Shown: piece by piece, positions 2,465 through 58,960 of the stretch
Numbering within the stretch: the first letter of the stretch is position 1
How the letters are laid out: each line of letters starts with the position of its first letter
Source of the DNA: Eledone cirrhosa
Taxonomy: Eukaryota
DNA: 64,000 nucleotides
Direction of reading: 5' to 3'
Assembly: GCA_964016885.1 (NCBI GenBank)
Contig: OZ024743.1
Location: forward strand, 123,814,001-123,878,000
Made by a program: the position numbers and the translations under genes
The notes under the pieces: model-generated
The model's input: the letters and a program-made list of their open reading frames with translations, nothing else
What the model was told of the DNA's origin: nothing
Database searches by the model: none

Positions 2465-2497
2465 GTGGGCGGCAAAGCCAAAGGAGAGTGTAGAGAC

Positions 2498-4417
2498 CTA
2501 CTTTTCTGCTTCCCAGGGTTCGGGTCGCACGACTTCCATGGGGTCGGGGGTGTTGGGTGAAGGGGTGTCTTGTGGTGGTGTGGGGTCGTCAGTGTGTGGT
2601 GGGGTTGGGGTGTTTGGAGTTGTGTTGGGGAGGGGAATGGGGGGGGGAAAGCTTTTTAGTAGTACGCGGTTTATGGGTTTGACAGAGGGTGGTCCTACGT
2701 CCTCCTTAAAATCCTTTTTTAGTTTTTGGTAGAGGTTCATTGGGATATTTATTAAATGTGGGTAGTTTTCTGAAGAAACAAAGTTTACACCTTCGGTTTG
2801 TACCGAAGGATTATTGTTTATGAGTTCATTTAATTTATTATTGTTTCTGTTGATGTAAGTATAGTGTAATGTCTTTTTTTCGGATGGTGTGAGTGTTTCG
2901 AAGAGGGGAGGGGCAGGTTTGGTTTGGTTTGTTGCTGGAGGGGTGTTTTGTGTTTTGTTGGATTGTGTTGACATTTGGGTAGGGGTTGTTTGGCCTTGTG
3001 TGTTTTGCACATGTTTTCTTTTTTTCCTTTTAATCTGTCTGAAGGACTCCGTTTCTTCCTCCGAATTCGTTGGGTTATCTTCAGTGTTGGAGGGAAGAGG
3101 TAAGTTTTGCTGGTAATGTTTCCGTGTTGGTTTTCTTTGTGGGGGAGATGGATATCACTATGTTAGACTGTGTTGTGTGTTGTGGCTGCGGTGGTTGTGT
3201 TGTTTTATTGAGTGAGGGGTTGGGTGGGACTGTATTTTGTTTTTGGGTAATGTGTTGTGACTGTTTGTGTTGTGGTGGTGGTGTAGTTTTACTGAGGGAC
3301 GGGTTGGGTGGGACTGAGTTTTGTTGTTTGTTTATCTGTTGTGGTGGTGGTGGTGGTGGAGCTGGTGGAGCTGGTGTTGGTAGCAGGGTTTTCTTTTTGT
3401 TGAGTTGGGGACAAGCCGCCTTCAGGTGCCCTCTGCCTGTACAGATATGAAAGGACGGCCTTCTCACCTCCACGCTAATGTTTATATACCCGTGGCACTC
3501 TAATAGGATTCTGTCGGGTATTTGGGCGATGCGTTCAGGCTTCATTTGCACTACAAGTTCTATACCTGTTCCACTGAACGCATTGCCTGTGGTTTTCCCA
3601 ATGGAAATCACGTTGTCATTCGCTGGATCGATGAAGCCAGCTATGAGCCAGGAGTAGTCCACATCTGGCATCATTGCATCCAGCCATATGCGCTGAGTTC
3701 TTTTACCCATATAAGATGGATAAAAGGTAAAATTTGTCGAACGAATCGGTGACAAAGCACATTTTTTTGCCGCCGATTCGTTCTTCATAATAATCGCTAG
3801 GCTTCCATACAGTCTGTCTTTTCTTATGAAAGTGGTTTCATTAAGTACTTCTGTAAGTACTGCTTTGATTTCTGTTTGTGTTGGCTCATGAGGTTTTTTA
3901 GAAATGTTGTTGATGGTGCGGAAAACGACCGTCCGACTTTCAATGTCTTTGGTGAGTTCTTGAGGCATTTTTACCGATAAAATACCATTTTCCCCTTCAG
4001 TTATGTATTGTTTGGCGTCTGTAATTCTTTGTGCCACATCTGAAATATTTTCAGGTATATATGTCAAAGATTTCTTTGTTGTTTGTGCAAATGAAATATT
4101 ATTGGTGTTGACTTTGTCGTCTGCTTTGCTTTCTGTTATAATGTTGTTTTCAAATGTTATTTTTGTGTTTGTCGTGTCTTTGTTTGTGGTATTAATATTG
4201 TCATGCAATTTTTCAATTTTTTATTTTTTCGTTGTTGGAATCAATGTCCAGATTTGTGTTTTCGTCATTTTTCTCCGCAGATTCGTCTGTTTTTATTTTA
4301 TTTTTTTCTTTCCTTCTCTATGACGTTAGTTGGGAAGGAAGGGGGGACTAAAGCGTGCGAGCTTACAACTCTTACCGCTGTCCCCCCACCACTATTTTCG
4401 TTAGCTTCGTTTAACAT
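2498..4417 (-). pseudogene. Copy A ORF1 (gag-like; knuckle, Pro/Thr-rich linker, conserved C-terminal domain), frameshifted
   Basis: Pieces 3081..4208 and 2498..3010; HICTGRGHLKAAC; C-terminal VQTEG..HL..DVGPP..NRVLLK.FP shared with B-D; start inferred at ATG 4417. Confidence 0.8.
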
Positions 4418-4654
4418 TTCTGTCAGACGATTGAAATTTTTATGCCACAAAATTTTTAAAACAGGTTTTTCACCCCTGGGAGGGGCAAAGATGAGCTGAC
4501 CCACTGCCTGACAGTTCAGACAGGGGGTCAAGCTACACAATAGTATCAAAATTAAAATTGAACTTACAAAATTTCCGCAATAAATTTGAACAAAACTTCT
4601 GCGCGAAGTGAATTACATCTACGCTGTAGAACAGACGACAGCTAGATTATAAAC

Positions 4655-4737
<83 letters not shown>
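4655..4737. repeat. (GA)n microsatellite with GATA units at both edges, between Tx1 copies A and B
   Basis: Direct reading. Confidence 0.97.
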
Positions 4738-4739
<2 letters not shown>

Positions 4740-4969
4740 GTTCTATTTATTTGCCACCAAGGCATCAAAGATTGGGACAAATACAAGGGGGGGTAGTTTA
4801 CATACATTTCAAAAAGACGTGTAAAAACATATAACAAATCAAATTCAACAATCGAAGTCCTCAATAGGGAGGGGACGTTGACGTGGGTCGCACAGACACC
4901 CGAAAAAAATGTGCAACCCTCCTCCTCAGGAGCACAAAGAGTGGGTGCTCCCTTCCTCTCCTCTCTCAC

Positions 4970-7900
4970 CTACAGGCTGATATAGAGAGAAGGCCCATTC
5001 ACTCGGGCCATTCTTGACACTTTCACCCACCTTTCATAAAACTTGCTGGGGTAGAGCACCTCTCTCTCCATTCTGATCCTTCTTCTAAAATGGTACTTGA
5101 AAAAAAGGACCAGTTGTTGGCCGGAGATCGAAAAGTGTCTGACCTCAGCCCTTTCAACCTCGTCCACCATACAACCTCTTTCGCCATAGCTATCACGCAG
5201 AGAAAAACTGCCTCTCCTTCGTTTTTGAATGGGGGAGGCGGTTTGATCGTTACAATGTACTCGGTGGTCAACCGGATTGGTCCCACCCGCGACAGTAGTC
5301 GTTCCACATAGCCCCACAGGTCAGCAACACCCGGGCAGTGTACGAATGCGTGCGCGACGATTTCCTCGTCACGTACGCATCTCGGAGAGATCTTCTTCGA
5401 GGGGTCCCTACCTGGGCGCCCTTGCCTGTAGAGCTTGTCCCGAACGAGTAGAGCTCCTCGGTAGCACTGTCAAACCAGGGACTTTTGGAAGTTGTCCATC
5501 GGTCCCGGGCCAAACGTCCTACCGAACAAACTGGCTAGCTCGTCTTCCTCCATGCCCAGAACCTCTCCGAGAGCGTCGTCGCACTTGCTGCGCACCAACC
5601 CTCTATAGAATGTTGAGGTTGAGTCTCCACTGATTGCCGGATCCGCTTGCCAGAGGGCCGTGAGCGCCTGAGCACATTCAATGTGCCAGTCACCCACTTT
5701 TCTCGGTCTTTGCTTGACCCAGGTTTGCAGCTCGGTGAGTGAGACGAGTCTCGGAAAGGCTCGCCTCACGAAAGGGGCCCACACTGTCTGACCGGTGAGG
5801 ATTACCTGGAGGTGCCGTAGCCTTAATGCGTGTCTACGCATCGTCAGCCACGGCATCCCCAGCCCTCCGTTCGAAGGGTGTTGACAGCAGATGGATGTTC
5901 TCACCAAAGGGGCCCGCTTCTTCCAGAGGAATAGGAAGAGCGCGTGCTCCATTTTGGCGAGCGTTTTCGCTGGGCAAGGCACGACAGTCAAGCGGTAGTA
6001 GATGACGGACGCTATATAAGTGTTCGCCACCTCTGCTCGACCTTTCTGGGATAGTTTGCATTCGGCCCACTTCTGGGCGAATGCAAACACCCTGCCCGTT
6101 ACCTCGTCCCAGTTTTTCTCCACCTGGAGGTTCGGTCCGAACTAGACCCCGAGCAGCTTCACCGGTCCCTCCGTCCAGCGTCCGACGACGCCGTCGGAGG
6201 GCATCGGTTTGCCTCTCCACGTTCCGAGTTGCAAACCGACGGACTTGTCCCGTTTCAACTTGGCTCCTGTAAACCTTTCATATTCCTCCAGTAAGGTGCC
6301 GATGTGCCCGATTTCCGAGGCGCACGACACCATTACTGTCATGTCATCGGCGTAGGCCGACACCGCTTTCCGCAATCCCGGCTCCAAGGGGATTCCCTGC
6401 AACAGCTCCAACTTCCGCTGTAGTGGCTCAAGAGCCAGCACATACATGAGGGAGGAGAGAGGGCATTCCTGTCGGATGGATTGCGCGATTTGGAACGGCT
6501 CCGAGAGGTAGCCGTTCACCTTGACCCTCGAGCAGGTGTTGCTGCTGTGCATTACAGCAATCCAGCCCCTGAAAACGGGTCCGAAGCCTGCTGCCGCGAG
6601 CACTGCATCCAGGTACCGATGGTCGACCCTATCGAACGCCTTAGATTGATCCAAGTTGACCAAAGCCGGGTTCGTTCACTACCCTCTCTACGATGTATCT
6701 CATGAGGTGGAGGTTGTCGTGTATGGACCTGGACGGGATTGCGCATGTCTGCGCTTCTCCCACCAGGTTCCCGACGACAAGCGCCAACCTCTTCGCTAAC
6801 ACCTTAGCCAAAATCTTTAACTCTGTGTTTAGCAGAGTTATGGGCCTGAAGTTATCTTTGTCATCCCTCTTGTTCTCGCCCTTCCTCATCAGCGTGACTA
6901 CGCCCTTGGTCACAGAACTGGGAATTCACTCGTTCTGTTTCCAGCTGCAGTAGACCGCCTCGAGGAGATCGGAGAACAAGTCCGGCATCGCTACATAAAG
7001 TTCGTATGGTAGACCATCGAGACCGGGAGATTTGCGTTTGCCGCATTGGCTCAGCGCTTCCCCTATTTCAGCGGCTGGAATCGGCCTTTCGCAGGACTTC
7101 GCCTCCCCGTCCGAGAGCCGCGGCAGACCGTCGAGGTATGGCCCGAAATCCATGGCCTCACCCAGCCCGCCGCCCCTCCCGAACAGTCGTGCAAAGCGCC
7201 GTTGAAAGGCAGCGCACATCCGCTCAGGTTCAAGGATCACACGTCCATCCTGGTCCTTCAGAGACCGAATCGTGGACTTGTTTCCACGTTTTGCCTCTGT
7301 CACTCGGGCCCAGCTAACAGTTTTGGCTCCCTCGTTACCCAGAACACGTATTTTACTCCTGACAACGCAGCCCTCGTGCTTCGCATCAAAGAAGTGGTCT
7401 AAGGCCATTCTTGACGCCAGCACGCCGGCCACGTTGCCACTCCAAATCGCCTCTTCTACTCTATCTATCAATTCCCTTTCAGGTATATTCCTATCTGATG
7501 CTAATTCCTGACTAAAACCTATCGATTTTATTCTAATTTCTCTCTTGAGAGATCCCCACCACCTGCTGTTGACAATTTCCCCCGTCAACCGCTGATTAAC
7601 TAGAGTGCTAATCCGCTTACTGTAAGCTTTGTTTGTCGGTAAGGACAAGTTTAGCTTCCAGTAACCGGGTCCTTGTCTATGGGTTCTATCAAGGTTGACC
7701 ACTCCGGTCACCAACTTGTGATCCGAATAGTCAACCATGATCATTCGTGGACAGCTTAATATGTCCCTATCCTTATTTCTAACTAGGAACCTATCTAGGT
7801 ACGACCTAGATGTTCTGCTACGATTAGTCCACGTCCACAGTGGCACAGTCGGAAAATCTAGTCGATATCTATCGGCCAGATCAAATCGGCCGATTAACTG

Positions 7901-8397
7901 TTTGAGGCTGTTACACCCCACTCTATTTGGACATGCCCCTACATAGTCCCAACGTGCATCCAGGATACCATTCCAGTTCCCCACTAAAAGCAAGGAGCGA
8001 GACGTTCCCAGAAAAGTCTCTAGACGTTGGAAGAAGTCCGGTCGCGGTGTCCCAGATGGGGCATACGCTGCCACCAGCCTGAAGGTTCCACCTTCACTAC
8101 TGCCGACGTTTAGAACCACCAGTCGACCCTCCGGGTCCAGGTGTACCTTCCGTGTTGCGAGGCCCAGGTGTTTTCGCAGCAGAACGACCACCCCGCCCCC
8201 ACCCCCCGGCTGACAGAGAGATGCATAGATCTCAAAGTCGTCGAAGATGGGGGCCAGTTGGTGCTCGCTGCTGATCCTAGACTCGCAAATAGCTATCACA
8301 TCCATTCTGTGTGACCTGAGGTCATTTAAGAGTTTGCCCTGCTTCCGGGACATCCCTAACCGCGCGCATTTAAACATCCAACTCTTATAACAGCCAT
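4970..8397 (-). pseudogene. Copy B ORF2 (APE, RT, C-terminal Cys/His domain), several frameshifts
   Basis: Pieces 6926..8377, 6641..6913, 6142..6663 (YADD), 5470..6123, 4970..5317; ATG at 8397 in ccaacATGG context; ends RVNGPSLYISL*. Confidence 0.92.
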
Positions 8398-8440
8398 GTT
8401 GGTGATGAAGAGTTTAAAGTGGAGAAAAAGGAAAAGACAC

Positions 8441-10208
8441 CTACCTGTCCTTCTCCTGGGGACCAGGCTGCACAATTTCCATGGGCGAGTCGGTGGGTTG
8501 TTTGGTGGGGGTGGGGGTTGGGGGTGTGGTGGGGTGAGGGTGTTTGGTGGGGGAAGGGGTGTATGGGGTGGTGGTGGGGAAACATTTCAACAGGACGCGG
8601 TTGCTAGGTCTAGTACAGGGGTTCCCCACGTCCTCGGGCAAGTTCTGTTTGAGCATTGCGTAGGTGTCCCTTGGGACCCTAATCATTTTTAAATGCGGTT
8701 TAGTCACCGCGTTGGTGAACATTTTCCCTTCGGTTTCCACCGAAGGGTCTTTGTCTATTGTTTGCACAAGTGTTTTGTTGTTTATGTTGATGTATGTATA
8801 CTGTATTTTGTTGTGTTGTGTTTGTTTTTGTTTGTTGTTCTTGTGTGTGTTTGCGTTTTGTAGTATGTGTTATGTTTTCGGGAGGGGTGGGTTTTTTGTT
8901 TGTGTTGTTTGATCTGTTTGTGCTGGTGGTTGTGTGTTTGTTGCATTTTTGTTAATGTGGTGCCTTCTTTTCTTTCTTTTTACAGGTTGAAAGGGTTCTC
9001 CCTCGTCGTCACTGGGTGACGTTGATAAGGGGTCCTCGTCCGTGTTGTTGGGGAGGGGTATATTTTGGGGTTTTGTTGCGGTTGCTTTTGTATTTGTTTT
9101 AGGTGGGGAGGGGTTGGGCGGGACAGTGTCTTGTGTTGTTATTGTTTCGTGTTGTTGTGGTGGTGGTGGTGGTGGTGGTGGTTGTGTTGTTGTGTGTGGG
9201 TGGGCAGAAGCGTCTTTTTTTAGGGGGGGGGGGGGGCATTTAAAAGTGGACAGGAAGCCCTCAGGTGACCACTTCTTGAACAGTGGTAGCATGAAGGCCG
9301 CCTGCCCTCAACAGAAATGTTTATGAAGGCGACTCCATCCAGGGACACACGCTGCGGTATTCTTGCTATCCGTTCTGGTCTCATTTGGACCAGAACTTCA
9401 AGGCTATTGCCGCCGAATACGCCCCCGGTGGATTCGCCTCATCTTCTAAGAATCTCGTTAGCACCCACCAAATGCTCGAGATTCTTATCTTTTGAGTTCT
9501 TTTCCCCAAATATGTGGGGGAAAAGGTGTATGCTTTGGATACAATTGGCGACACAGAATATTTCCGTGCCGCCAATTCATTTTGCATTAAAACAGATATG
9601 CTTCCATACAGTTTCCCTTTCTGTATGAAAGCGATATCATTCCAGGCACTACTTAGGACCAGCTCAATTTCGCTTTGGGACAATTGAGCCGGTTTCCTAG
9701 TCGTGTTCGAAACTGTCCTAAAGATTACAGTCCTGAGGACTGTGTCCCTTCTAATTTCTTCGGGGGAGATAATTGTGGATTCCCCACCTTCTCCAAAAGT
9801 TACACAATTCCTTGCTTCTTTCAGCAATTTCTTGGGATTCGAGATGTCCAGTGCCTTGTATGTCTGCGTTTCTCGGACCGCCTGTGCGAAGGAGACTGCA
9901 GCTGTGGGTCCGTTTTCTTTCGCGTTGTTATCATTGTTGTTGTTGTTGTTGTTATTCGTGTTAGCTTGCTTTTTTCCTTTGTTGGTGTTGTCATTATTGC
10001 TGTTGTTGGTTGTGTTGTTATTGTCATTGTTGTTCTTGTTTGTGTAATTGTTACTTTTGGGGTTTTCACCCATTTCCACAATTTTTTCTTTTGATTCCGT
10101 GGTGTCTTTTGCGGGAGTGAAGAGGGAAGGCTTACAGCGTTGTGCTGCTACCTTCTCTCTATCACTTTCCTTGGGGGGCGTGGCATGCGTCGTATTAATG
10201 GCGTCCAT
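8441..10208 (-). pseudogene. Copy B ORF1, frameshifted
   Basis: Pieces 9381..10235, 8870..9292, 8441..8767; CYHCSRSGHLRASC knuckle near 9250-9292; KRKKRRH basic patch. Confidence 0.82.
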
Positions 10209-10411
10209 TGTCACTAAACGACTTTTTATCGACAACTTATAACTATTAAATTTCGCCCCAAAAAGGGGCGAAATTTATTTTACCCAACGTCTGCAGGCCC
10301 AGGCGAGGGTTTAAACACAACAAATAACAAGTTACTTAAACAAACCTACCGCTTCTCGTAATAAATTCCGACAAAATGCAGGAGCGAAACAAAAACACGT
10401 CTATCTTCTCC

Positions 10412-10516
<105 letters not shown>

Positions 10517-13134
10517 TCATTGACTAATAGATAGATAGATATTTCATATATATTTGCATATCCAAATATATATGCATCTAATATTTCGTATATATATATA
10601 TCTACATATAGATATAGATATATGCAGGTATGTATGTTGATACATTGCATATTCTTCTACATCGTGAAGCAATAAATGCTTAGATTTTCTCCTTTTCTCC
10701 TTTCCTTTTTTTTTTCATTTTGCATTGGGAATTGTAATTACATGAGCAATAATAGATGTGTATTATTTTATATATGCAGGAATTATTCTATGGATTATTG
10801 TATACACACACACATACATACACACATGCACAGGCATATACGCACACATACACACCCATAAGCACACAAACACACACACACATATACATACACACACACA
10901 TACACACATATATACATATATTTATATATATGCCTGTGTTTTTGGTTGTATGTGTTATGTGTGTGTTCCAATATTTCAAGTGGATGTTTACATTGGTTAG
11001 CATATGCAAATATGAATAAATTCGTGTATGCAAGTGTATTCCTATACGGATTTACATATGCAAATGCATCACTCTGCTGTTCTATAAGCTGATTGAGTAG
11101 TTAATGTTGCCAATATGCCTACACCGACAATCTGAATAGTTATTAAATCCTTCGAAATACAATCAATAAAATGAATAAAACAAAAGAACACCCAAGTCAA
11201 ATGATTTTTATCCTCGTTGATACCCTAGAGCGCTTCTCAAATGATATTTTTTGATTGAGTAGGTTACATGTTTCTGAAATATGAATTTGTGTGAAATTAC
11301 TTGAAGATCAGTCAGTAAGATGTTCTTATTTCAATTTTGCCGCTTGTGGCTATGGTAAAAATGTTAAATATAGAGAAGATGAAAGCTAAGTTTGTTAATT
11401 TAATCAAATTGGTAATTTCGTCGCTGAACTGTTTATAACTGCTATTGTCATGGGTGTCGTGTTTTGAAAGGAAGAGATAAAGTAATTTCGTTAAAGGAAA
11501 TATATTTGCTTCTGTTAAAAATAAAGACGTAGTTTTCGGAAAATAACTCAATGGTTAGGATAAAGGACATAGAATTAAGTAGTTGAAATCAAAGGTGTTC
11601 AAGCTGTAATCGTTGAGGGTTTTGTTTGTTTTTTTGTACATTATCCAATGAGATCTTCCTTATTTTTTTGAGACGTTTATGATTTGGTTGCTATTTCTAT
11701 TAAGTCTAACTGCTATGGAGAGGATCCACATTTCGATCATGTATTCTCTGTATTGTTAATGGTAGTGTCAAATGTAAGCATTGGAGTACCTTATGATGGG
11801 ATCGTATCTGCTCTTAAATGAGGTGACGAAGAATTAAAAAGGAAATTCATAAGCCTCTGTATGATTTTACTTTCCCGAAATAGTAACAAAATTACTTCAG
11901 ATTACATTCCCTTGTCTTGAGTTACTGGATAATGTACATAATAACAAAGGGTAATATGATCACAGTTCAAATATCTTTGATCATGGGCCTGCTAGTTTAG
12001 GGCTGTCAGAAACTTGACAGCGATACGATACTAAAATAGTGGTAGGAAGCCAGTAAATGTATATAACTTGAATGTGCATATCTAGAACTTCGGGGTACAC
12101 AGATTATCTCTATATATTTGCTCTTATCGACGCTACCTTCTTATATTAAATCCTTTTTCAAACATTCCCTGCGTTTATAATTTACATAAATGACATTTTA
12201 AAAATCTTTGTGCGCTTCATTTTGTTTTCCGACTTCATGCGTTGGATACGTTGTTTATCAGTTGTTTAAAGTCTAACTATTATTTTAGAGAGGTGAATCT
12301 GTGAGTCATTCGCCTGCATAGTTCTAAGCTAACATGGCATCCGTGTTATCTTAGTATTGTTATTGAGGATGACAAATGGGATGTGGAGTGTATTATGGTG
12401 CCGTCGCATTCGGAAAGAAAAAAAAAGTTGGGTAATACAGTTGCTGAGATTTGAAATATACCCGAACTATTAAATTATCAATTCTGTTGTCGGCCACGAC
12501 TTTTGTCAACAACATAATTGAAAATAACTTGCACTACAATGAGACTAGCTATTTCCTGATGCAATGTGAATTTAGCTTCTTCAAAATGTCTTTATATCTA
12601 CGAAAACGTATTGTAGAAGTTATCTTACCAAGTGGACATGAAAAAGAACGACACTTCGTAAATATCGAAAATATAAGACAAATATTTATTAATACAGTTG
12701 ATCGTTTAGCCTTATGTTAGTCCTACATATACAGCAGAAATGAAATCAAAATCATTCCCGCAATGATCATCTCTTTCTATCAAGAAGTTTAGACCTATAA
12801 CAACCTTATTCAATTTATTCTGCTCTTTTTCAAGACGCTAGAATAAAATTATCTAATCTAATCTAATCTGGCCGAGTTTACACTCGCAAATAAGAACCTG
12901 GGCCGCCTCTAGGAGCATTGGATTTGGTGTACTTCATGTTTGTTTCGGTTTCTGAATACAATCAGGGGTCGCAGCTTCTCCTGAAGGTCAATAGTTCTCT
13001 TCTAACTGGAGCGGGAGCGCCTTTCCATTGTCAATTTGCATTGATCATCTGTAAAGCCGCATTGTTCTCAGAACCACTACACATTTCTTTCGATGCGTGC
13101 AGCTGGAACTACTGCCACCCATTGATTTGGCAAG

Positions 13135-14805: not shown

Positions 14806-17800
14806 ATTTTATTAAGCTCTCATACATTTTATTAAGCTCTCATGTTATTAAACTCTCATACATTTTCTTAAGCTCTCATGTTATTAAACTCTCATACATT
14901 TTATTAAGCTCTCATGTTATTAAACTCTCATACATTTTATTAAGCTTTCATACATTTTATTAAGCTCTCATGTTATTAAACTCTCATACATTTTATTAAG
15001 CTTTCATACATTTTATTAAGCTCTCATGTTATTAAACTCTCATACATTTTATTAAGCTCTCATACATTTTATTAAGCTCTCATGTTATTAAACTCTCATA
15101 CATTTTATTAAGCTCTCATACATTTTATTAAGCTCTCATGTTATTAAACTCTCATACATTTTATTAAGCTCTCATACATTTTATTAAGCTCTCATGTTAT
15201 TAAACTCTCATACATTTTATTAAGCTCTCATACATTTTATTAAGCTCTCGTGTTATTAAGCTCTCATATATTTTATTAAGCTCTCATGTTATTAAACTCT
15301 CATACATTTTATTAAGCTCTCGTGTTATTAAACTCTCATACATTTTATTAAGCTCTCATGTTATTAAACTCTCATACATTTTATTAAGCTCTCATACATT
15401 TTATTAAGCTCTCATGTTATTAAACTCTCATATATTTTATTAAGCTCTCATGTTATTAAACTCTCATACATTTTATTAAGCTCTCATGTTATTAAACTCT
15501 CATACATTTTATTAAGCTCTCATACATTTTATTAAGCTCTCATGTTATTAAACTCTCATACATTTTATTAAGCTCTCATGTTATTAAACTCTCATACATT
15601 TTATTAAGCTCTCATGTTATTAAACTCTCATACATTTTATTAAGCTCTCATGTTATTAAACTCTCATACATTTTATTAAGCTCTCATACATTTTATTAAG
15701 CTCTCATGTTATTAAACTCTCATACATTTTATTAAGCTCTCATGTTATTAAGCTCTCATACATTTTATTAAGCTCTCATGTTATTAAACTCTCATACATT
15801 TTATTAAACTCTCATACATTTTATTAAGCTCTCATGTTATTAAACTCTCATACATTTTATTAAGCTCTCATGTTATTAAACTCTCATACATTTTATTAAT
15901 CTCTCATATATTTTATTAAGCTCTCATGTTATTAAACTCTCATACATTTTATTAAGCTCTCATGTTATTAAGCTCTCATACATTTTATTAAGCTCTCGTG
16001 TTATTAAACTCTCATACATTTTATTAAGCTCTCATATATTTTATTAAGCTCTCATGTTATTAAACTCTCATACATTTTATTAAGCTCTCATACATTTTAT
16101 TAAGCTCTCATGTTATTAAACTCTCATACATTTTATTAAGCTCTCATGTTATTAAGCTCTCATACATTTTATTAAGCTCTCATGTTATTAAACTCTCATA
16201 CATTTTATTAAGCTCTCATATATTTTATTAAGCTCTCATGTTATTAAACTCTCATACATTTTATTAAGCTCTCATACATTTTATTAAGCTCTCATGTTAT
16301 TAAACTCTCATACATTTTATTAAGCTCTCATGTTATTAAACTCTCATACATTTTATTAAGCTCTCATGTTATTAAACTCTCATACATTTTATTAAGCTCT
16401 CATATATTTTATTAAGCTCTCATGTTATTAAACTCTCATACATTTTATTAAGCGCTCATGTTATTAAGCTCTCATACATTTTATTAAGCTCTCATGTTAT
16501 TAAACTCTCATACATTTTATTAAGCTCTCATATATTTTATTAAGCTCTCGTGTTATTAAACTCTCATACATTTTATTAAGCTCTCATGTTATTAAACTCT
16601 CATACATTTTATTAAGCTCTCATACATTTTATTAAGCTCTCATGTTATTAAACTCTCATACATTTTATTAAGCTCTCATGTTATTAAACTCTCATACATT
16701 TTATTAAGCTCTCATGTTATTAAACTCTCATACATTTTATTAAGCTCTCATACATTTTATTAAACGCTCATGCTATTAAACTCTCATATATTTTATTAAG
16801 CTCTCATGTTATTAAGCTCTCATACATTTTATTAAGCTCTCATGTTATTAAACTCTCATACATTTTATTAAGCTCTCATGTTATTAAACTCTCATACATT
16901 TTATTAAGCTCTCATGTTATTAAACTCTCATACATTTTATTAAGCTCTCATGTTATTAAACTCTCATATATTTTATTAAGCTCTCATGTTATTAAACTCT
17001 CATACATTTTATTAAGCTCTCATGTTATTAAACTCTCATACATTTTATTAAGCTCTCATACATTTTATTAAGCTCTCATGTTATTAAACTCTCATATATT
17101 TTATTAAGCTCTCATGTTATTAAACTCTCATACATTTTATTAAGCTCTCATGTTATTAAACTCTCATACATTTTATTAAGCTCTCATGTTATTAAACTCT
17201 CATACATTTTATTAAGCTCTCATGTTATTAAACTCTCATACATTTTATTAAGCTCTCATGTTATTAAACTCTCATACATTTTATTAAGCTCTCATGCATT
17301 TTATTAAGCTCTCATGTTATTAAACTCTCATATATTTTATTAAGCTCTCATGTTATTAAACTCTCATACATTTTATTAAGCTCTCATGTTATTAAACTCT
17401 CATACATTTTATTAAGCTCTCATACATTTTATTAAGCTCTCATGTTATTAAACTCTCATATATTTTATTAAGCTCTCATGTTATTAAACTCTCATACATT
17501 TTATTAAGCTCTCATGTTATTAAACTCTCATACATTTTATTAAGCTCTCATACATTTTATTAAGCTCTCATGTTATTAAACTCTCATACATTTTATTAAG
17601 CTCTCATGTTATTAAACTCTCATACATTTTATTAAGCTCTCATGTTATTAAACTCTCATACATTTTATTAAGCTCTCATGTTATTAAACTCTCATACATT
17701 TTATTAAGCTCTCATGTTATTAAACTCTCATACATTTTATTAAGCTCTCATACATTTTATTAAGCTCTCATGTTATTAAACTCTCATACATTTTATTAAG

Positions 17801-18442
17801 CTCTCATGTTATTAAACTCTCATACATTTTATTAAGCTCTCATGTTATTAAACTCTCATACATTTTATTAAGCTCTCATGTTATTAAACTCTCATACATT
17901 TTATTAAGCTCTCATGTTATTAAACTCTCATACATTTTATTAAGCTCTCATGTTATTAAACTCTCATACATTTTATTAAGCTCTCATGTTATTAAACTCT
18001 CATACATTTTATTAAGCTCTCATGTTATTAAACTCTCATACATTTTATTAAGCTCTCATACATTTTATTAAGCTCTCATGTTATTAAACTCTCATACATT
18101 TTATTAAGCTCTCATGTTATTAAACTCTCATACATTTTATTAAGCTCTCATGTTATTAAACTCTCATACATTTTATTAAGCTCTCATGTTATTAAACTCT
18201 CATACATTTTATTAAGCTCTCATGTTATTAAACTCTCATACATTTTATTAAGCTCTCATGTTATTAAACTCTCATACATTTTATTAAGCTCTCATGTTAT
18301 TAAACTCTCATACATTTTATTAAGCTCTCATACATTTTATTAAGCTCTCATGTTATTAAACTCTCATACATTTTATTAAGCTCTCATGTTATTAAACTCT
18401 CATACATTTTATTAAGCTCTCATGTTATTAAGCTCTCATACA
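14806..18442. repeat. 3.6-kb minisatellite; 36-bp unit = TACATTTTATTAAGCTCTCA (20 bp) + TGTTATTAAACTCTCA (16 bp)
   Basis: Roughly 100 near-identical units with occasional extra 20-mers; no unique spacers. Confidence 0.97.
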
Positions 18443-21229: not shown

Positions 21230-21807
21230 TGGTGGCTGCCAACTCGTTTTCGAGTACGGCCACTACTTTATATCCATGTAGGAGAACTCCTACCGATTCG
21301 CTGAACGAATGTGACTTTTTAGTGCAGCCAGCGACTTGAAAACTCTGGTACAAACACTACACTTGTGACAATTATTGACACATAGTGCTAGGCCCATGGT
21401 ACCATGTGACGACAAGTGCAGAGAGATCTCCAGATACAAAGCAATGCCTGTGCCGTGAAGCTTTTATAGTGAGCAAAGGCACTGCACAAAGCCAGTCCCA
21501 CTCTCTTAACCAAGATGATATTTACCAAAAAGAAGAACAAGTCAACATCATTGGATACCATCAGAGTTGCAGGTGTTATATCAGAGTTTTCCTTCTCCTA
21601 GAATGCTGCCTTGACAAAGGCTAAGGGTCATCTCTCCCGGTGATTTTGGATGGCCATTGACTCTTAAGAGCTCCTTTGCCCTTTGACAGGTTTTGTTTTT
21701 AGTCCTGCAGGACGTCCAAAGTCACCCTCCTCACCAAGAAACCTTGGTGGGGTTGCCAGTTTAGTCGCCAACGACCCGACCATGAGACAGGTTGTACTGG
21801 GATACAT
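21230..21807 (-). mobile_element. 605-bp retroposon copy 2, about 30 bp 5'-truncated
   Basis: Breaks at gatacat, a microhomology with (TACA)n. Confidence 0.8.
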
Positions 21808-21881
21808 ACATACATACATACATACATACATACATACATACATACATACATACATACATACATACATACATACATACATAC

Positions 21882-22805
21882 ATAAATCTCTCACCCAGAG
21901 AAATCGGAAGATCCTATTCAATGTTCAAACAAGAAAAAAAAATTGACCAATTTACAGAGAAAGTTGTGCATGGATACTTGAGACGCAAAACACAGACCAT
22001 AGAGGGGATAAACCACTCAAAAAGCCTGGCATGGAGTTCCGACAAGTTTATGACATCACACCTTGAGGGATATCTCTATGCAATACAGGAACAAGAACTC
22101 CCTACCAAATATCTGCTGCACAAAAGAGGAGGGCCAGCAGCTGACAATAAATGTAGGCTATGTAAAACAAAGATCGAGGATGTAAGCCACATTGTTGCCA
22201 GCTGCGAAAGAATGTCATCTCGCTACTACCTCCCCATGAGACACGATGGGATAGCTAGAACTATCTGGAACGCACTTCGGAAAACAAAATTAACAACAAA
22301 CGAGGAAGAATATATTGAGACAGATGGCACTAAGGAATACTGGTGGAACCTGAAAATAAAAACTGCCACCAAATTAAAGCACAACCGGCCTGATATTGTA
22401 GTTTGGGACCACACATTGAAAACGTGTTCTGTTGTGGAGATCAGCTGCCCACTTGATGTAAACGTTGTCAGAAAAATACAGGAGAAGGAGGACATCTACG
22501 GACCATTGATGAGGAGCTTACAAATCCAGTATCCAAGATACACCTTTAGCTTCATACCCATCATTATTGGTGCTACGGGTTATATACCAACCCGCTTGGA
22601 CCAAAGTATGACCGAACTTGGATTTGCGGACAAAAAGCGCAGCTCCCTAATTCATAGTCTACAAATGGTTGCGATAGCTGGCACCTTCAAAATATGCAAA
22701 ACATTCTTGCGATTCAAGGGATGACAATTTCTTTTCTTTTACAACCTTGCCACCAGGAAGGTGGCCGGTCAAAAAAATATACTCGAAATTAAGAGAAAGA
22801 GAAAA
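21882..22805 (+). mobile_element. 5'-truncated R4/Dong-type RLE LINE (family 1): zinc knuckle, restriction-like endonuclease and 3' UTR
   Basis: CRLC..HIVASC, RHDGIA, HNRPDIVVWD..VEISCP..K..Y; stop at 22724; flanked by (TACA)n; near-identical to 42571..43492. Confidence 0.88.
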
Positions 22806-22830
22806 CATACATACATACATACATACATAT

Positions 22831-23186
22831 GTTAGTAACCGCCTCAACACAAATCTTGAGAAGCTAGGCTTCACAAGAACAGAAAGAACACAACTAGTTA
22901 GGAAATTACAAGTACAATCAGTAAAAAATATGTAAAACATTCCAAAAATGTTGCATCTAATAACTGCATATACACATGTGCAGATACAAAGCATATACAC
23001 ATCCACACATACGACTCAAAACATCCACATCCACACATACAATAACATCCATATCTACACATGCATGCATGCAGACATATCTACCTATTTGATGTTGTGT
23101 AAATTCCAATGAGAGAGTATTGTGTCTATGTTAGAAACCGACTCTCTCTATTGGTAAAAATTTGTGAAATTAAAAAACCAGAAGAA
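22831..23186 (+). mobile_element. 3' fragment of a second R4/Dong-type family
   Basis: LEKLGF..LVRKLQ..KICKTF-like C terminus; 3' UTR stem ccaatgagagagt..actctctctattgg; flanked by (TACA)n. Confidence 0.68.
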
Positions 23187-23228
23187 CATACATACATACA
23201 TACATACATACATACATACATACATACA

Positions 23229-23259
<31 letters not shown>

Positions 23260-23288
23260 GTACGTACGTACGTCATTCGTATATACAT

Positions 23289-23549
23289 AGGTTCAGTTTC
23301 ATACTTATCATTATTGGAGTTACAGGATATATACTAACCCAACTGGACCAAGTACACTTGGATTTGTGGAGAAAGAACGTGGCTCCTTAATTTATAAGCT
23401 ACAAATAGCTGCAATATCTGTAAAACAATCTTGCGATTCAAAGAATGAACGATTGCATAAAGAACGACAAAAAATTCTTTTTCATTGTAATCTTGTCACC
23501 AGGAAGGTGGCCGGTCAAAAATAAACTTTAAATAAAGTGAAAGAGAAGA

Positions 23550-23551
<2 letters not shown>
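23289..23551 (+). mobile_element. Diverged 3' fragment of R4/Dong family 1
   Basis: FSFILIIIGVTGYI; 3' UTR caccaggaaggtggccggtc; ends in (TACA)n. Confidence 0.75.
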
Positions 23552-23580
<29 letters not shown>

Positions 23581-23600
23581 CATACATACATACATACATG

Positions 23601-23740
23601 TACACATCCACACATACGACTCAAAACATCCACATCCACACATACAATAACATCCATATCTACACATGCATGCATGCAGACATATCACCAGGAAGGTGGC
23701 CGGTCAAAAAAATATACTCGAAATTAAGAGAAAGAGAAAA
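23601..23740 (+). mobile_element. Chimeric Dong family 2 / family 1 3'-UTR fragment
   Basis: 23601-23686 matches 22996-23080; 23686-23740 matches 22751-22805. Confidence 0.75.
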
Positions 23741-23778
23741 CATACATACATACATACATACATACATACATACATACA

Positions 23779-24386: not shown

Positions 24387-24464
24387 CATACATACATACA
24401 TACATACATACATACATACATACATACATACATACATACATACATACATACATACATACATACA

Positions 24465-38834: not shown

Positions 38835-40656
38835 TTTGGTGTTGAAAGTGAAGAAAGAAAAGCACCTACCTCTCCGGGTTGTGTAATTTCCATGGCGTCA
38901 GGTGTGTTGGGTGGAGGGGTGTTTTGTGGTGGTGTGGGGGTGCCCGAGTGTGGTGGGGTTGGGGTGTTTGGAGTTGTGTCAGGGAGAGGGGAGGTTATGG
39001 GGAAATCTTTCAAGAGGACGCGATTTAACGGTTTTAAACAGGGGGGGGGCTCACGTCCTGTCTAAATTGTTCTTTTAAGGAACGATAAAGGTCCAGAGGG
39101 ACCTTTATCATTTTTAAATGGGTGAAGTTCTCTGTTGAGATAAAGTTTGGCCCTTCGGTCTGCACCAAAGGGCTATTGTTTATTAATTTAAACAGTTTTT
39201 TGTTTTCTTTATTTATATATGTGTATTGCAATCTCTTTTTTTGTGATGCTGTCAATGTTTCGGAGAGGGGAGGCGCAGATTTATTTTTGTTTGTTGAGGG
39301 TGGGGTGTTTTTTATTGGAGTTGGTGTTTGTGTGTGGGTTATTTGTGCTGTGCTGGGTGTGTGCTTTCTTTTTTTTCTTTTAACTTGTCTGAAGGCTTCT
39401 CCTCCTTCTTCTTCAGAAGTTGGGGGAAACTCTTCAGCGCTAGGTGGGAGGGACGTCGTGTCTGGTTGTTTTTTTTGCGGGAGGGGTAGATTTGTTCCTG
39501 TTTTTTTTATTATTTGTTTGGAATGCGTTTTGTGGTGGTGGTGGTGCTGTTTGTGTCGTGCTTGTGGTTGGTAATGGTGGTGGTGGTGTTTGTGTTGGTG
39601 ATGGTGGTGGTGATTTTTGTGTCGTGCTTGTGTTTGGTGCTGGTGGTGGTGATGTTTGTGTTGTGCTTGGTGGTGTTTGTATTTTGTTTGCTGTGTGTGG
39701 TATTAGTGTATTTTTGGAGGTGGGTGGTGTTGGTGTACTGTTTGTGGTGGGTGTGGGCAATAGTCCTTTTTGGGGGATACGTTTCGGGCAGTTAGCCTTA
39801 ATGTGTCCCCTTTCCGTGCATAAATAGCATGCTGGTCTTCTCCCCTCTACAATTATATCTATTGGGGTGAGCTCATCCAGCCAGATGCGATCCGGGATTT
39901 GTGCTATTCTTTCGGGCCTCATTTGGACTAGTAGGTCGAGGCCCATTCCCAGGAACGCATCTCCGGATGCCTTCCCCATTGACAGCACTGTGTCCTCGCC
40001 CATGTCTATGAAGCCAGCAATAGCCCACCAGAAGTCCATTGTGGGCAGCATTGTTTGTATTTTTACTCTCTGTGTTCTTCTACCCATGTAGGAGGGATAG
40101 AAGCTGTATGTTGTCGATGAGAGTGGGCTTAGGGAAAGCTTCTGCGCCGTTTCCTTGTCTTTTGTTAAGACCGAAATGCTGCCATAGAGTCGGTCCTTTC
40201 GTATGAAGAGAATATTCTTCATATAGTCTTTTAGGACCAACTCTATCTCCATTTGGCTGGGCTGTGCTGGCTTTCTTGTTTGGTTTAGGATTGTTCTGAA
40301 GAGAACTGTGTTCTCTGTTCTCGCTTTCTTGAATTCTGGGGGGGGGGGGGGGAGTTAATGGAAAACATTCCGTTCTCCCCCAAAACAATGTGTTTCTTTG
40401 CTTCGGCCAGTTTTTCTCTGGCGGCAGTTAGGTCTATTGGTGTAAATGTTATGGACTGTTTTGTTTTCTGGGCGAAAGTTGCCTTGTTGTTATTTGTATT
40501 ATTATTTTCTGTTTGTTTGTTTTCCGTTTGCTCATTTTCCGTAACATTTGTTTTTTCATTTTCCTTGTCTAATTTTGTTGTATTTATTTTTTGTTCTTCA
40601 GACTTGGGGGGCGTGGCAGAGCTAATGGCAGACATGTCTGCCATCTTTTCCGCCAT
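38831..40656 (-). pseudogene. Copy C ORF1, frameshifted
   Basis: CYLCTERGHIKANC knuckle; pieces 40285..40656, 39440..40252, 39034..39255, 38831..39013. Confidence 0.85.
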
Positions 40657-40890
40657 GCTGCCAAGAAAGAAATTTTACAGCAAAATAGATATTTATTTTA
40701 CCCCCTAAAAAGGGGGTAAATGTAAAAATGTTTCCCTAAATAACAGGGGTTAGTGTTCCAAATGTGTTGCACTGAAAGATTTATCTGGTACTTACTATAG
40801 TAAGGGTAAATCCCGATGGAATAGCGGAGCCGATGTGAAGCGTGTCTTACTCTATCAAGATAGATAGGTAGATAGATAGATAGATAGATA

Positions 40891-41230: not shown

Positions 41231-41454
41231 CATATACATACACATGCACCATGTATATACACATATATGTATATGTGTATACATATGTGTATATCTGTAT
41301 ACATATGTGTATATATATGTATATGTGTATACATACATATGTATGTGTATACATACATATGTATGTATGTATACATACATACATACATACATACATACAT
41401 ACATACATACATACATACATACATACATACATACATACATACATACATACATAC

Positions 41455-53173: not shown

Positions 53174-56100
53174 CTACAGGTTTATATACAGAGAAGGCCC
53201 ATTCACTCGGGCCATTTTTGCCACATTCACCCACCTTTCAGTGAATTTACTTGGGTGTAGCACCTCTGTCTCTACTCTCACCTTCCTTCTGAAGTGATAC
53301 TTAAAGAAGGGGATAAGTTGTTGTCCGGAGAGAAAGGTGTTTGCCCTCAGTCCTTTTAACCTCGTCCACCATATTACCTCTTTCGCCATAGCCACCAGAC
53401 AGAGGAAAACCGCCTCTCCTTCGTTCTCAAATGAAGGCGGAGGGGTGATCCTCACGATGGACTCGGCTGACAACTGGATGCGTCCCACACGTGACAGCAG
53501 CTGTTCGACATAATTCCACAGGTCGGTCACCCCTAGGCACTGAACAATTGTGTGCAGAACGGTTTCGATGTCCTGCTCGCATCTTGGACAGGTCCTTTTG
53601 GCAGGATATCTGCCAGGGCGTCCGTACCTGTAGATTTTGTCTCGAACTGGTAGAGCTCCTCGGTAGTACTGCCAAGCCAGAGACCTCTGGAAGTTATCCA
53701 TAGGCCCTGGACGGAAAGTCCTCCAGAACAGACTAGTCAGTTCGTCCTCCTCGATGCCTAGAGTTTCCCCGAGAACGTCGTCGCACTTATCCTCCACTAA
53801 TCCCCTATAGAATGTCGCAGTAGAGTCTCCGCTGATTGCCGTTTCCGTTTGGTAGAGGGCTGTGAGCGCCTGTAGGCACTCGAGGTGCCAGGCACCCATT
53901 TTCGGTCTTCGCTTGACCCAGGACTGCAGCTCTGTTAGTGAGACGAGTTGTGGAAGAGCTTGTCTCACAAACGACAGCCACACCGGTTCACCGGTCAGGA
54001 ATACCTGGAGATGGTGTAGCCTCAGCACATGTTTGCGCATCATCAGCCACGGCATGCCCAGCCCTCCGTTAGAAGGGTGTTAACAGCAGATGGATCTCCT
54101 CACCAATATAGCCTGTTTCTTCCAGAGGAACTTGAAGAGGAGGCGTTCCATTTTGGTAAGGTATTCGTGGGGGCAAGGCACGACTGTCAAGCGGTAATAG
54201 ATGACGGACTCTATGTAAGTGTTCGCCACCTCCGCTCGACCGTTCAAGGAGAGTTTGCACTCAGCCCACTTCTGGGTGAATGCACACACTTTCGCCGTGA
54301 CCTCGTTCCAGTTCTTGTCCACCTGGAGGTCTGGATCGAACCAGACCCCGAGCAATTTCACCGGTCCTTCCGTCCAGTGTCCAACGACACTGTCGGAAGA
54401 CATGGGTTTGCCTCTCCATGTGCCGAGTTGCAAACCGACAGACTTGTTTGGGTTTAGTCTTGCTCCTGTCAACGTTTCGTATTCCTGTAATAGGTTGCCG
54501 ATTACCCTGATTTCCGAGGTTTTCGACACCATTACGGTTATGTCGTCAGCATAGGCTGACGCTGCTTTACACAGTCCTGGTTCGATCGGGATGCCCTGCA
54601 ACAGCTCCAATTTCCGCAGTAACGGCTCGAGAGTTAGTACATACAGAATGGAGGAGAGAGGGCATCCCTGACGGATGGAACGCATGATTTGGAATGGCTC
54701 TGATAGGTAGCCATTCACCTTCACTGCCGAGCAGATGTTGGTGTGCATGGCAGCGATCCAGCCTCTGAAGACGGGACCGAAGCCGGCCGCCTTGAGAACT
54801 GCTTCCAAGTATTGATGGTCGACCCTATCAAATTCCTTAGACTGATCTAAATTGATCAGAGCCCCACCAAAGCCAGGTTTACACCCTACCCTCTCTATGA
54901 TGTATCGCATGAGGTGGAGGCTGTCGTGTATGGACCTGGTCGGGATTGCACACGTTTGTGCTTCCCCTACCAGGTTCTCGACGACAAGCGCCAGCCTTGC
55001 TGCTAACTCCTTGGCCAAAATCTTTAACTCTGTGTTGAGAAGAGTTATGAGCCTGAAATTGCTTATCTCATCCCCCTTGTTCTCATCTTTCCTAATCAGC
55101 GTTACTACGCCTCTGCCTACAGAACTGGGAATCCTCCCGTTCTGCTGCCAGTTGCAGTAGACCGCTTCCAGGACGCCAGAGAACAAGTCTGGCATGTCTA
55201 TGTAAAACTCATAGGGTAGACCATCTAAACCGGGTGATTTGCGCTTCCCGCAGCGGCCTAGGGCATCTTCTATTTCTCCCGCTGTGATCGGCCATTCGCA
55301 GCATTCGTGTTCGAGAGTCGCGGTACGCCGTCGAGGTAGGAGCTGAAGTCCATCACCTCGCTCGATGTACCGCTTTGCCCGAACAGTTGTGCAAAATGCT
55401 GCTGGAAGGCCGCGCACATCCGCTTGGATTCAAGTATAATGCGTCCATCTTTGTCTTGCAAAGACCGAATTGTGGATTTGTTGCCACTTTTCGCCTCTGC
55501 CACTCGGGCGCAGCTAACAGCTTTGGCTCCCTCGTTTCTTAGAGCACGTGTTCTACTTCTGACAATACAACCTTCGTGTTTCACGTTGAAGAACTGGTCT
55601 AGTGCCGTTCTCGCCGCTAGCACGTCAGCTGTACTGCCATTCCTAAATGCCTCTTCTATTTTAGCTACCAGTTCCTTTTCAGTTTTGTTTTTTTCTAAAG
55701 CTACTTCCTTGCTAAATGCTATTGATTCTATTCTAATTGTTCACTTGAGAGAGCTCTACCACCTGTTGTTGACGATGGCCCCTGTCAACTGGCACTTAAC
55801 TAAGGTGCTAATCCGTTTACTGTAGGCCTTACGCGCCGCGAGCGACATGTTTAGCTTCCAGTATCGGGGTCCCTGTCTATGTATTCTATCAAGGTTGACT
55901 ACGTAGGTGACTAATTTGTGGTCATCTTAATGTGCATTTGTGGACAGCTTAATGTTTCCTTATCATTCTGTCTAATTAAAAATGTATCTAAATACGATCT
56001 AGAAGACCCAGTACAGTTGCTCCACGTCCACAGTGGTGCACTCGGGAAGTCTAGTCGATATCTATCAGCCAGTTGGAATTGGCTGATGAGATTTTTGAGG

Positions 56101-56592: not shown

Positions 56593-56632
56593 GTTGGTGA
56601 AGAAGAGTTAAGGAGAGAAAAGGCAGGAACAC

Positions 56633-58488
56633 TTACCTTTTCGTTTCCTGGAGGTCGGGTTGTTCGATCTCCATGTCCAGATTGGTGGTGTTTGGGGAGG
56701 GAGGGAATCCTTTTAGCAGGACACGGTTAAGGGGCTTTTGGCAAGGGGGGCCCACATCATGTGGGAAGTTCTCTTTTAAAGTTTCATACTGTAGGGTTGT
56801 TACCCTGATAAGTTTGAGCGTTGGGGTGGGTCGTTGGTGGGGAAAGTTTTCCCTTCCGTTTGTATTGTGGGGTCCTTTAGGACAGTTTCCACCAGTTCTT
56901 TGTTTCTTGTTTTTATGCATGTGTAGTGTGTTTTGTTTCTTATGTGTACTGTTTCTGTTTGTAGTTTTCTTTTTGTGGTTGGGGTTTGTGATTGTGGTGT
57001 GGGTGTTTGTTTTGTTGGTGAAGTGTTTGGTTGTATTGGTGGTGATTGTGTTGTTGGTGTGTTTGTCGTTTGTGGCGGTGTGTTTATGGTGGGGTTGGGT
57101 GTGTGCGTGTTTTCTGTAAATGTTTTTGTGTCTTTTTTGTGTCTTTTTTGTTTTTTGGATTTTTGGGGTTCCTCTTGATTCTCACTTGGAGATGTAGAGG
57201 TTCCCGTATCTGAGACTTCTGAATCAGGGGTAGATGGGACGGGTATGTTGTGTGGTGGAGTGTTTGTGCAGGTGTTTGTGGAAGTATTTGACAAGGGGAG
57301 GGGGAGAGGCAATGGAGGGTTTTTTTCAGTGTGATTTTGTGTGTGTGGTTGTCTCTGGTCTGTGGTGGTGTGGGAGTGGATGTTGCAGGTGTTTGTGTTG
57401 TGTTTGGTTTGGAGTGTTGATGTTGGGGTTTTGGTGTTGGTAATAACACCTTGTTTGTCCTCGGTTTGTTCAAGAGACCTTTAAGTGTGTGGTTTTGCCA
57501 CACTTATGGCATTGAGGTCTCTACTCCTCCACTAAAATGGAGATGACATCTTCCTCAAGGACGATCCTGTCCGGTATTTTTTCAACTCCCTCTGGCCTCA
57601 TTTGTACCAGAACCTCGATGCAGGTTCCAAACCAGTTATGACGGTCTGTCCTGTCTACAGATAGGAGGGTGTCCTCATCCTTCTTCAGGATGCAGCGTAG
57701 GATCCACCATATGTTGACCTCTGCTGGGATCCTGGTTATTTTTATTTTGTAGGATCTTCTTCTAATGTATGTGGGGAAGAAGATGTATTGATCCGTTTTT
57801 ATTGGGTGAACCGAGTGTTTTTATGCCAGAGTTTCGCTCTTAAAGAGCACTGACACACTTCCATACTGTTTACCTCTTTGGAGGTATGCCACGTCTGGCT
57901 TGATGTCTTTTAGTGCAGCTTCGATAGTGCTTGTTGGGAGCGTTATGGGTTCTTTTGGTAGTGATGTCAACTGTTCTATAAATTAGCTTCTTTTTCTGTG
58001 TCATTTCTCTTATTTGTGGGGTATGTGTATGTGTGGGGTGTCTCCCTCAAACGTCACATAGAAGCTTCTTCCAAATATTGGGACTTTTGGAGTAGTATTT
58101 AAAATCCTGTTGTTTAGCAACTGTTGCTGCAAATGAAATGTTGTTATTGTTGTTGTTGGTGGTGATGATGGTCTCATTCATTGTGTTGCCACTGATTCCT
58201 TTTTTTGTGTTGTTGTTCTCATTTATTGTGTTGTTGTTGTTGGTTGTGGTGGTATTAGTGTTTGCTACACATACTTCCTTCTGTGTGTGGATACATGTGA
58301 CGTTTGTGACGTCAGGCGTGTTCAGTTGCTTACAAGCAGCTGAAGCTTGTTCCTCTTCTAAATGTTGAGGCGATAATGTTGGCATTCCTGTGTCTATGTC
58401 TGCTACTACCTGCTGGTCAAGTAGGCATGGCTTTCCCTTCCTATCTTCTTGTTTTGACAAAAAAAGTAAGTGCCTTTGCTTCAGCCAT
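56633..58488 (-). pseudogene. Copy D ORF1, degraded
   Basis: CHKCGKTTH knuckle near 57490-57512; IQTEG..HDVGPPCQKPLNRVLLKGFP C-terminal domain. Confidence 0.78.
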
Positions 58489-58960
58489 TTTTTAAAATTT
58501 GAAGTGCTTTGCAAAATTTTTTTTTCGAAAATATTTTGGATGTTTTTGCCCTGAAGGGAACGATATTTTGGGAGACTGACCAGATCAAAATTTGACCTGT
58601 CAGTCCTCTACAAATTGGTATAAAAATAAAAGTTCACAATGACGAATTTCTAAAGAAATTTAATCAAAACTTACCGAGCAAGTTTAACACATGTGTCCAT
58701 CCCAGAGATAGATAGATAGATTTTCCTCTAATAATATATAATGAAGTTGCCAGTCCACTCAATGATGCCAGACAGTATTGTTTCAAGATTTGTTAATATT
58801 TCATCAGTGACACACATTCAATCCATACTGGCGTGGAAATAGACTAAAGTCTATATAAAATTTTGCAGGTTGTTGTTTTAAATGTCCACTTTCCCTGCTA
58901 GCAAGAGTTAGACGTATATATATATATATATATATAAATTAATAAAATAATGAATAAACA

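Follow-up and report, generated by a model that had tools for sequence, protein, structure and literature searches.

Long interspersed nuclear elements (LINEs) need far more of the protein encoded by their first open reading frame (ORF1p) than of the one encoded by the second (ORF2p), which they are known to achieve by inefficient reinitiation on a single bicistronic RNA. In two Ty1/copia-type elements with long terminal repeats (LTRs), copia of Drosophila and EVADE of Arabidopsis, a spliced subgenomic RNA that encodes gag only has been demonstrated (PMC7197481). Human L1 is spliced within its 5' untranslated region (UTR) or into ORF1; these spliced RNAs are described as dead ends and leave integrated copies known as spliced integrated retrotransposed elements (SpIREs), including genomic copies spliced in the 5' UTR (PMC5860796). 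Penelope-like elements keep a spliceosomal intron in their mobile copies (PMC4209133), and some Tx1 elements target microsatellites, namely (TC)n in Kibi, (TTC)n in Koshi and (TTCC)n/(TTTC)n in crocodilian elements (PMC4494074). We describe a lineage of Tx1-like LINEs, four copies of which lie in a 64,000-nucleotide (nt) stretch of the genome of Eledone cirrhosa (GCA_964016885.1, contig OZ024743.1, 123,814,001-123,878,000; hereafter the window, in which all coordinates are given), and in which the whole of ORF2 may be contained in a spliceosomal intron.

The four copies, A, B, C, and D, are members of a lineage for which searches of the species' own 3.0 Gb genome delimited 11 subfamilies (A to K) with ORF2 identities of 68-92%. 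Judging from their sequences, we consider it fairly probable that a single transcript gives rise to two RNAs, a spliced message for ORF1 only and an unspliced RNA. The spliceosome would act on a donor where ORF1 ends and on the AG within the ORF2 stop codon (in subfamily F, probably on a CAG that lies 164 nt beyond it), producing a message of about 2.2 kb (in C, 5705 minus 3473 nt) that encodes ORF1 alone. The junction would leave the C terminus of ORF1p almost unchanged and be followed by a short 3' UTR, which would let the spliced message avoid nonsense-mediated decay. The unspliced 5.7-kb RNA would encode both proteins and be the sole form copied into the genome, with ORF2p made from this RNA only and binding the same molecule in cis. 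On balance more ORF1p than ORF2p would be made, a parallel to the gag-only splicing of copia-type elements. The elements of this prediction in the window are as follows, a slash marking the exon-intron boundary:

4735..10413, minus strand: element B, a Tx1-like LINE, full length but decayed, bounded by (TATC)n and (TC)n
8441..10208, minus strand: ORF1 of B, interrupted, its stop TAG inside the donor
8439..8447, minus strand: main donor of B, CAG/GTAGGT, with +1 at 8444, followed by a pyrimidine-rich spacer and then the ORF2 ATG
4970..8444, minus strand: candidate intron of B, 3475 nt, made up of the spacer and the whole of ORF2 (ATG at 8397, stop at 4972-4970), predicted to be spliced
4970..4990, minus strand: candidate acceptor of B at the ORF2 stop, with a rival CAG 7 nt upstream
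4966..4968, minus strand: TGA that would terminate the spliced ORF1 of B (AG/G TGA)
4746..4751, minus strand: AATAAA at the end of the 3' UTR of B
2496..2501, minus strand: main donor of A, whose acceptor lies to the left of the window (locus L331)
38864..38869, minus strand: main donor of C, phase 0; ORF1 if unspliced continues for 12 codons
35390..35419, minus strand: putative acceptor of C at the ORF2 stop (the AG ends at 35402), with an in-frame TGA three codons on
56631..56636, minus strand: main donor of D, AAG/GTAAGT, phase 2
53174..53191, minus strand: candidate acceptor of D, weak; its use would add about 27 codons

The donor at the end of ORF1 is very likely functional. A preliminary description of the window had placed it in all four copies, and it is found there on the minus strand as AA/GTAGGT in A (2501), CAG/GTAGGT in B (8444), GAG/GTAGGT in C (38869), and AAG/GTAAGT in D (56636). 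The A at position −1 of copy A is a mutation of the window copy, with AAG/GTAGGT present in 28 of 30 loci of its family, and positions +1 to +6 are intact in 30/30 A, 27/30 B, and 29/30 D loci. Exact matches to the donor number 598 for C and 1,211 for F in the genome. Across subfamilies the donor is GTAAGT, GTAGGT, or GTGAGT, preceded by G. When all sites were ranked with splice-site frequency matrices, using one copy per subfamily (that of E being without most of ORF1), the donor came first in 9 and tied for first in 2 of the 11 representatives, each with 215-342 GT sites (in B, 1 of 309). Copies of C with GTAAGT differ pairwise by 0.47% and those with GTAGGT by 2.48%, figures from sets chosen differently, so the apparent youth of GTAAGT is not relied on.

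The reading frame in which the donor is held argues against a coding explanation. Six subfamilies (E, G, H, I, J, K) have it in phase 1, four (A, B, D, F) in phase 2, and C in phase 0, and because the motif is kept in all three phases, no single coding constraint accounts for it. The last amino acids of ORF1 differ as well, and the ORF1 proteins of K and F share only 24-31% identity with that of C, so conservation of the donor beyond coding constraint, which the preliminary description had named as a check, is borne out. Over the same subfamilies only 13 of 58 four-fold sites are invariant. The donor of F lies about 45 nt downstream of the position it has in H and I, once more at the ORF1 stop. 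Our control set consisted of 80 metagenome loci of L1/Tx1 relatives so distant that they do not share the layout, 40 with a long ORF2 and 30 of those with an ORF1 end, and in none of these 30 was there a donor as strong at the end of ORF1. Closer to the lineage, an Argonauta ORF1 model has the C terminus EGKS and another relative (P0129) DQGK, which at the level of protein sequence would be the amino acids encoded by GGTAAGT in phase 1. The latter, of 603 aa, comes from a contig of 2,209 nt, the size that a spliced message would be expected to have, yet its DQGK end is the unspliced reading.

At the other end of the candidate intron, CTGTAG/GT was confirmed at the ORF2 stops of the minus strand, ending at 4970 (B), 35402 (C), and 53174 (D), with GT..AG spans of 3475, 3468, and 3463 nt, and the 3' end of A, beyond the window edge, reads CTGTAG/G TAA. 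Among about 260 AG sites, the one at the ORF2 stop ranks 1 of 260 in C, 4 of 261 in A, 5 of 271 in B, and 6 in E. The AG ranked 1 in B is the CAG 7 nt upstream of the stop AG, and E too has a better CAG 7 nt upstream; splicing to this CAG in B would extend ORF1 by two residues, up to the ORF2 stop. The 3' UTR of F contains a long T-rich tract and a CAG at +164, where H is without an AG. This CAG has rank 2, is present in 33 of 35 F 3' UTR matches, and would, if spliced, add 19 codons and a stop before the AATAAA. In older F copies the tract and CAG occur in 6 of 10 fetched regions, the remainder being three without a 3' end and one incomplete.

The reading frame across the predicted junction also fits for the most part. 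The C termini expected from the preliminary description hold, with B ending in KDR-stop, C in E/VKK-stop, and D about 27 codons longer. In 36 copies, joining the donor to the stop AG would end ORF1 after 0 (A, B, E, H, I, J), 1 (G, K), or 3 codons (C), and the first stop in the 3' UTR is in the frame that fits the donor phase in 9 of the 10 subfamilies with an AG, the alternative frames being mostly long. In phase-1 subfamilies the stop is TGA, TAG, or TAA, at +3 or +6; in A and B the phase-1 stop is lost and a phase-2 stop is present. The G TAA of A was predicted before its 3' end was read, and the prediction held. In distant relatives a stop lies at most 3 codons away in 18 of 102 frames. 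With subfamilies taken as independent the phase match has p = 0.004, but it loses significance when they are collapsed to four lineages, so the matching of donor phase and 3' UTR stop frame is suggestive only. A separate idea, that the stop three codons past the junction in C is a compensatory change, was ruled out by the presence of the same stop in A.

A second intron-like segment lies near the 5' end. In each of the four window copies, GTAAGT or GTAGGT stands about 30-100 nt from the 5' end and is followed by an AG after 59-67 nt:

4508..4567, minus strand: 5' UTR intron-like segment of A, GTAAGT..GTCAG, 60 nt
10291..10349, minus strand: 5' UTR intron-like segment of B, GTAGGT..CTGCAG, 59 nt
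40736..40795, minus strand: 5' UTR intron-like segment of C, GTAAGT..CACTAAC..TTTAG, 60 nt, with CACTAAC ahead of its AG
58608..58674, minus strand: 5' UTR intron-like segment of D, GTAAGT..TTGTAG, 67 nt

Subfamilies G and H have a similar 5' UTR segment, and the donors of F, J, and K are weaker there. Just downstream of it, several subfamilies with unrelated surroundings carry short, perfect, G/C hairpin-like inverted repeats, recognized by sequence and not by folding (window 10260-10275 and 40700-40720; loci L292 and L305).

Set against this evidence are the observations of this paragraph and the searches for spliced copies described in the next. The stop AG is weak in D, G, H, I, J, and K, where it ranks 14-58 (D: 28 of 285), and ORF2 of F ends in TAA without an AG at the stop. 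As a rule for the whole lineage, the statement that ORF2 lies exactly inside an intron, as the preliminary description put it, is therefore not supported: the candidate acceptor at the stop is strong in A, B, C, and E, but the statement fails for F, and in D and G-K it meets a weak site. The same TAA of F, a young subfamily, is the one instance of the free variation of the ORF2 stop that was named as damaging to the idea. Conservation of the TAG beyond coding constraint was not borne out, as a TAG stop in 10 of 11 subfamilies is not above background: 52% of 23 ordinary two-fold sites are just as constant, with the same base in 10 or more of the 11 subfamilies. TAG conservation was accordingly dropped as evidence for the acceptor. 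By eye, no clear branch point is present upstream of the acceptor, and the +164 acceptor of F was identified post hoc. In the reading frame, the spliced ORF1 of D would gain 27 codons before its stop, D and F shifted donor phase without a corresponding change at the stop, and the phase match falls to p = 0.30 once the subfamilies are collapsed to four lineages.

Spliced copies were sought in the species' own genome with exact matches required, and the positive control of the gap pattern returned 660 matches. Spliced copies of C numbered 0 versus 598 donors and 660 3' ends, those of F 0 versus 1,211 unspliced, and those of B 0 versus 59 unspliced; A, D, G/K, and H/I likewise gave 0, here without exact denominators. 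A pattern for C that is sensitive to about half of joins to any other acceptor also had 0 matches. The copies consisting of ORF1 and 3' UTR without the exact GT..AG segment that the preliminary description had suggested looking for were thus found in none of A, B, C, D, F, G/K, and H/I, so that the mark of a SpIRE, genomic copies missing exactly the intron, was not seen in these subfamilies. No C copies were missing the 5' UTR segment versus 514 exact matches retaining it, and RNA without only this segment would still encode both proteins, yet no such copies exist among them. Since the 5' segment is never missing, the transposing RNA was never spliced there, which fits either full escape from splicing or no splicing at all. 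Integrated copies are unspliced. If ORF2p binds its own unspliced RNA in cis, the spliced RNA leaves no copies, and under strict cis preference ORF1-only copies are not expected.

Some candidates from these searches were set aside. The sole match of a general test for spliced copies is a point variant, and 20 C copies with short or unmatched ends proved to be deletions, truncations, chimeric ends, or point changes, none of which begins at the donor. Three sequencing runs of unrecorded kind were aligned to B, and the predicted joint was absent among 15 of 223 joints; these runs resemble genomic DNA contigs from one sample. In two of the three, one joint leaves out 528 nt of ORF1 (window 9258-9787), bounded by GT..AG on the minus strand; it occurs at single-copy depth and is probably a chance deletion in one copy.

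An explanation that we consider unlikely, albeit deserving of serious weight, is that both donors are landing sites for the U1 small nuclear ribonucleoprotein (snRNP) and are not spliced. Bound U1 would keep the A-rich transcript from being cleaved and polyadenylated prematurely or would raise transcription, and the stop AG and nearby stops would have been inherited by descent. Such a role would fit a donor that is conserved far better than any acceptor, the finding of no copy without either intron-like segment, and the AATAAA that 7 of 10 representatives have 220-420 nt ahead of the donor (B, D, and I are without one nearby); it also has a precedent in the conserved 5' UTR donor of human L1, which serves promoter activity and not splicing (PMC5860796). 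U1 binding leaves unexplained, however, why the donor is placed at the ORF1 stop and shifted jointly with it in F. Nor does it account for a first 3' UTR stop that tracks donor phase in A and B, or for a phase-1 stop achieved in G, J, and K with three different codons or offsets.

We regard it as improbable that the donor is spliced mainly to other acceptors, such as U-rich sites in the 3' UTR, a downstream tandem copy, or host exons, in which case ORF2 would not be exactly one defined intron. Higher-ranking AG sites do occur in the 3' UTRs of D, F, H, I, and J, the better CAG 7 nt upstream in B and E points the same way, and copies are frequently head to tail; yet the high ranks of the stop AG in C (1 of 260) and A (4 of 261) are hard to reconcile with this, and the downstream sites would add 14-47 codons to ORF1. 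Slightly less credible still is a chance resemblance to a donor, with GGTAAGT and the pyrimidine spacer serving ORF2 as a signal for translation termination and reinitiation or for protein binding. The motif does lie about 40 nt ahead of the ORF2 start, and in phase-2 subfamilies the TAA, TAG, or TGA within it is the ORF1 stop, but it is also retained in phases 0 and 1, in which it does not supply the stop, its three forms (GTAAGT, GTAGGT, GTGAGT) are all within the donor consensus, and a similar motif recurs near the 5' end.

Returning to the splicing of ORF2 as an intron, we give about even chances to its fullest form, in which the lineage sets its ORF1p:ORF2p ratio as a retrovirus or copia does. 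ORF2 would then be the intron and the spliced RNA a message purely for ORF1, transposition would be confined to RNA that avoids the spliceosome at both introns, and co-evolution of splice sites with stop codons would have kept this arrangement in at least 11 subfamilies and probably in other octopod genomes. That splicing is regulated as an activity switch is speculation. If the proposal is true, splicing is a control point of element activity, and ORF1 expression exaggerates the transposition potential in these genomes.

The elements are LINEs with two ORFs, an apurinic/apyrimidinic (APE) endonuclease, and a reverse transcriptase (RT), flanked by microsatellites and often arranged head to tail; they have no integrase match and end in AATAAA and a microsatellite tail. 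The intact ORF2 of locus L128 matches PF03372 and PF00078 above cut-off and PF13966, a C-terminal zinc-binding region, just below it, and domain evidence of these types is also present in the ORF2 pieces of the window, with an endonuclease domain in B. The separate ORF1 has 611 aa, with C-x2-C-x4-H-x4-C in 5 of 5 aligned ORF1s and a weak Pfam zf-CCHC match (E 0.018, below cut-off); ORF1 of B is broken in the window copy, and intact relatives encode about 610-700 aa. Fetched copies are flanked by (TATC)n or (TTA)n, a statement of occurrence and not of excess over random expectation. The label Tx1 rests on the preliminary description and on domain and flank features rather than on an RT tree, and the microsatellite-targeting Tx1 elements are likely kin. 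The closest named proteins are from Argonauta and Octopus. Protein searches with ORF1 gave 0 and 1 matches, and a profile search led to octopod gene models, of which one from O. sinensis is at best 37% identical to any subfamily here and so represents no close family.

C and F are young subfamilies, with many matches having intact frames of 1,166 or 1,204 codons, and C has hundreds of near-identical intact copies. Most copies of subfamily C also look full length, which is unusual for a LINE: exact patterns match 514 5' ends, 598 ORF1 ends, and 660 3' ends. The subfamily is without an ATG at the ORF2 start, having instead an ATA that overlaps the ORF1 stop (ATAG; window 38826-38838, minus strand; L111-L130). 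The first Met comes about 55 codons in, within the endonuclease, in 20 of 20 fetched loci with intact frames, and its ORF2 is likely to be translated by non-AUG reinitiation. Head-to-tail arrays combine the same or different subfamilies with the microsatellite tail as the joint (window 4657-10541; L119, L120, L126, L293), the repeat being (TATC)n in A-E and (TTA)n in F-K. Both ends of element D carry a 21-nt direct repeat (58720-58740, 52902-52922), a target site duplication with a short (TATC)n inside its 5' copy. Elsewhere the window contains a 3.6-kb AT-rich satellite array with a base unit of 36 nt (14806-18442), a decayed mobile element with long frames that by eye looks like a Helitron-type helicase (46573-50816, minus strand), and decayed RT fragments labelled by eye as another LINE type (21786-26750 and 41098-43413, plus strand).

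In literature searches outside subscription journals, Repbase reports, and supplements, no title or abstract opening among the papers listed pointed to a LINE with ORF2 in an intron, and a search on octopus Tx1 led only to general repeat surveys. Compared with the microsatellite-targeting Tx1 elements, the lineage has the same APE endonuclease and RT in ORF2, separate ORF1, and microsatellite flanks, but the flanks here are (TATC)n or (TTA)n, and splicing of the element is unmentioned in the accessible part of PMC4494074. With human L1 it shares membership in the L1/Tx1 type of LINEs and conserved splice sites, one of them a donor close to the 5' end; unlike in SpIREs, the main donor is at the end of ORF1, its use would remove ORF2, and no spliced copy was found. 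The genomic copies of Penelope-like elements similarly retain an intron, although these belong to another class of retroelement and their intron reportedly does not contain the RT gene. The closest functional likeness is to Ty1/copia, in which a structural protein comes from a spliced RNA without the enzyme region and the unspliced RNA is both enzyme message and template, an arrangement that is predicted here. This likeness is one of function and not of membership: copia-type elements have LTRs, a single gag-pol frame, and a demonstrated spliced RNA, whereas the present elements are two-ORF LINEs without LTRs or a single frame and their spliced RNA is a prediction. If it is true, splicing in a LINE becomes a step of the life cycle instead of a dead end, and a conserved ORF1-only splice would be a second solution to the need for excess ORF1p, convergent with that of copia.

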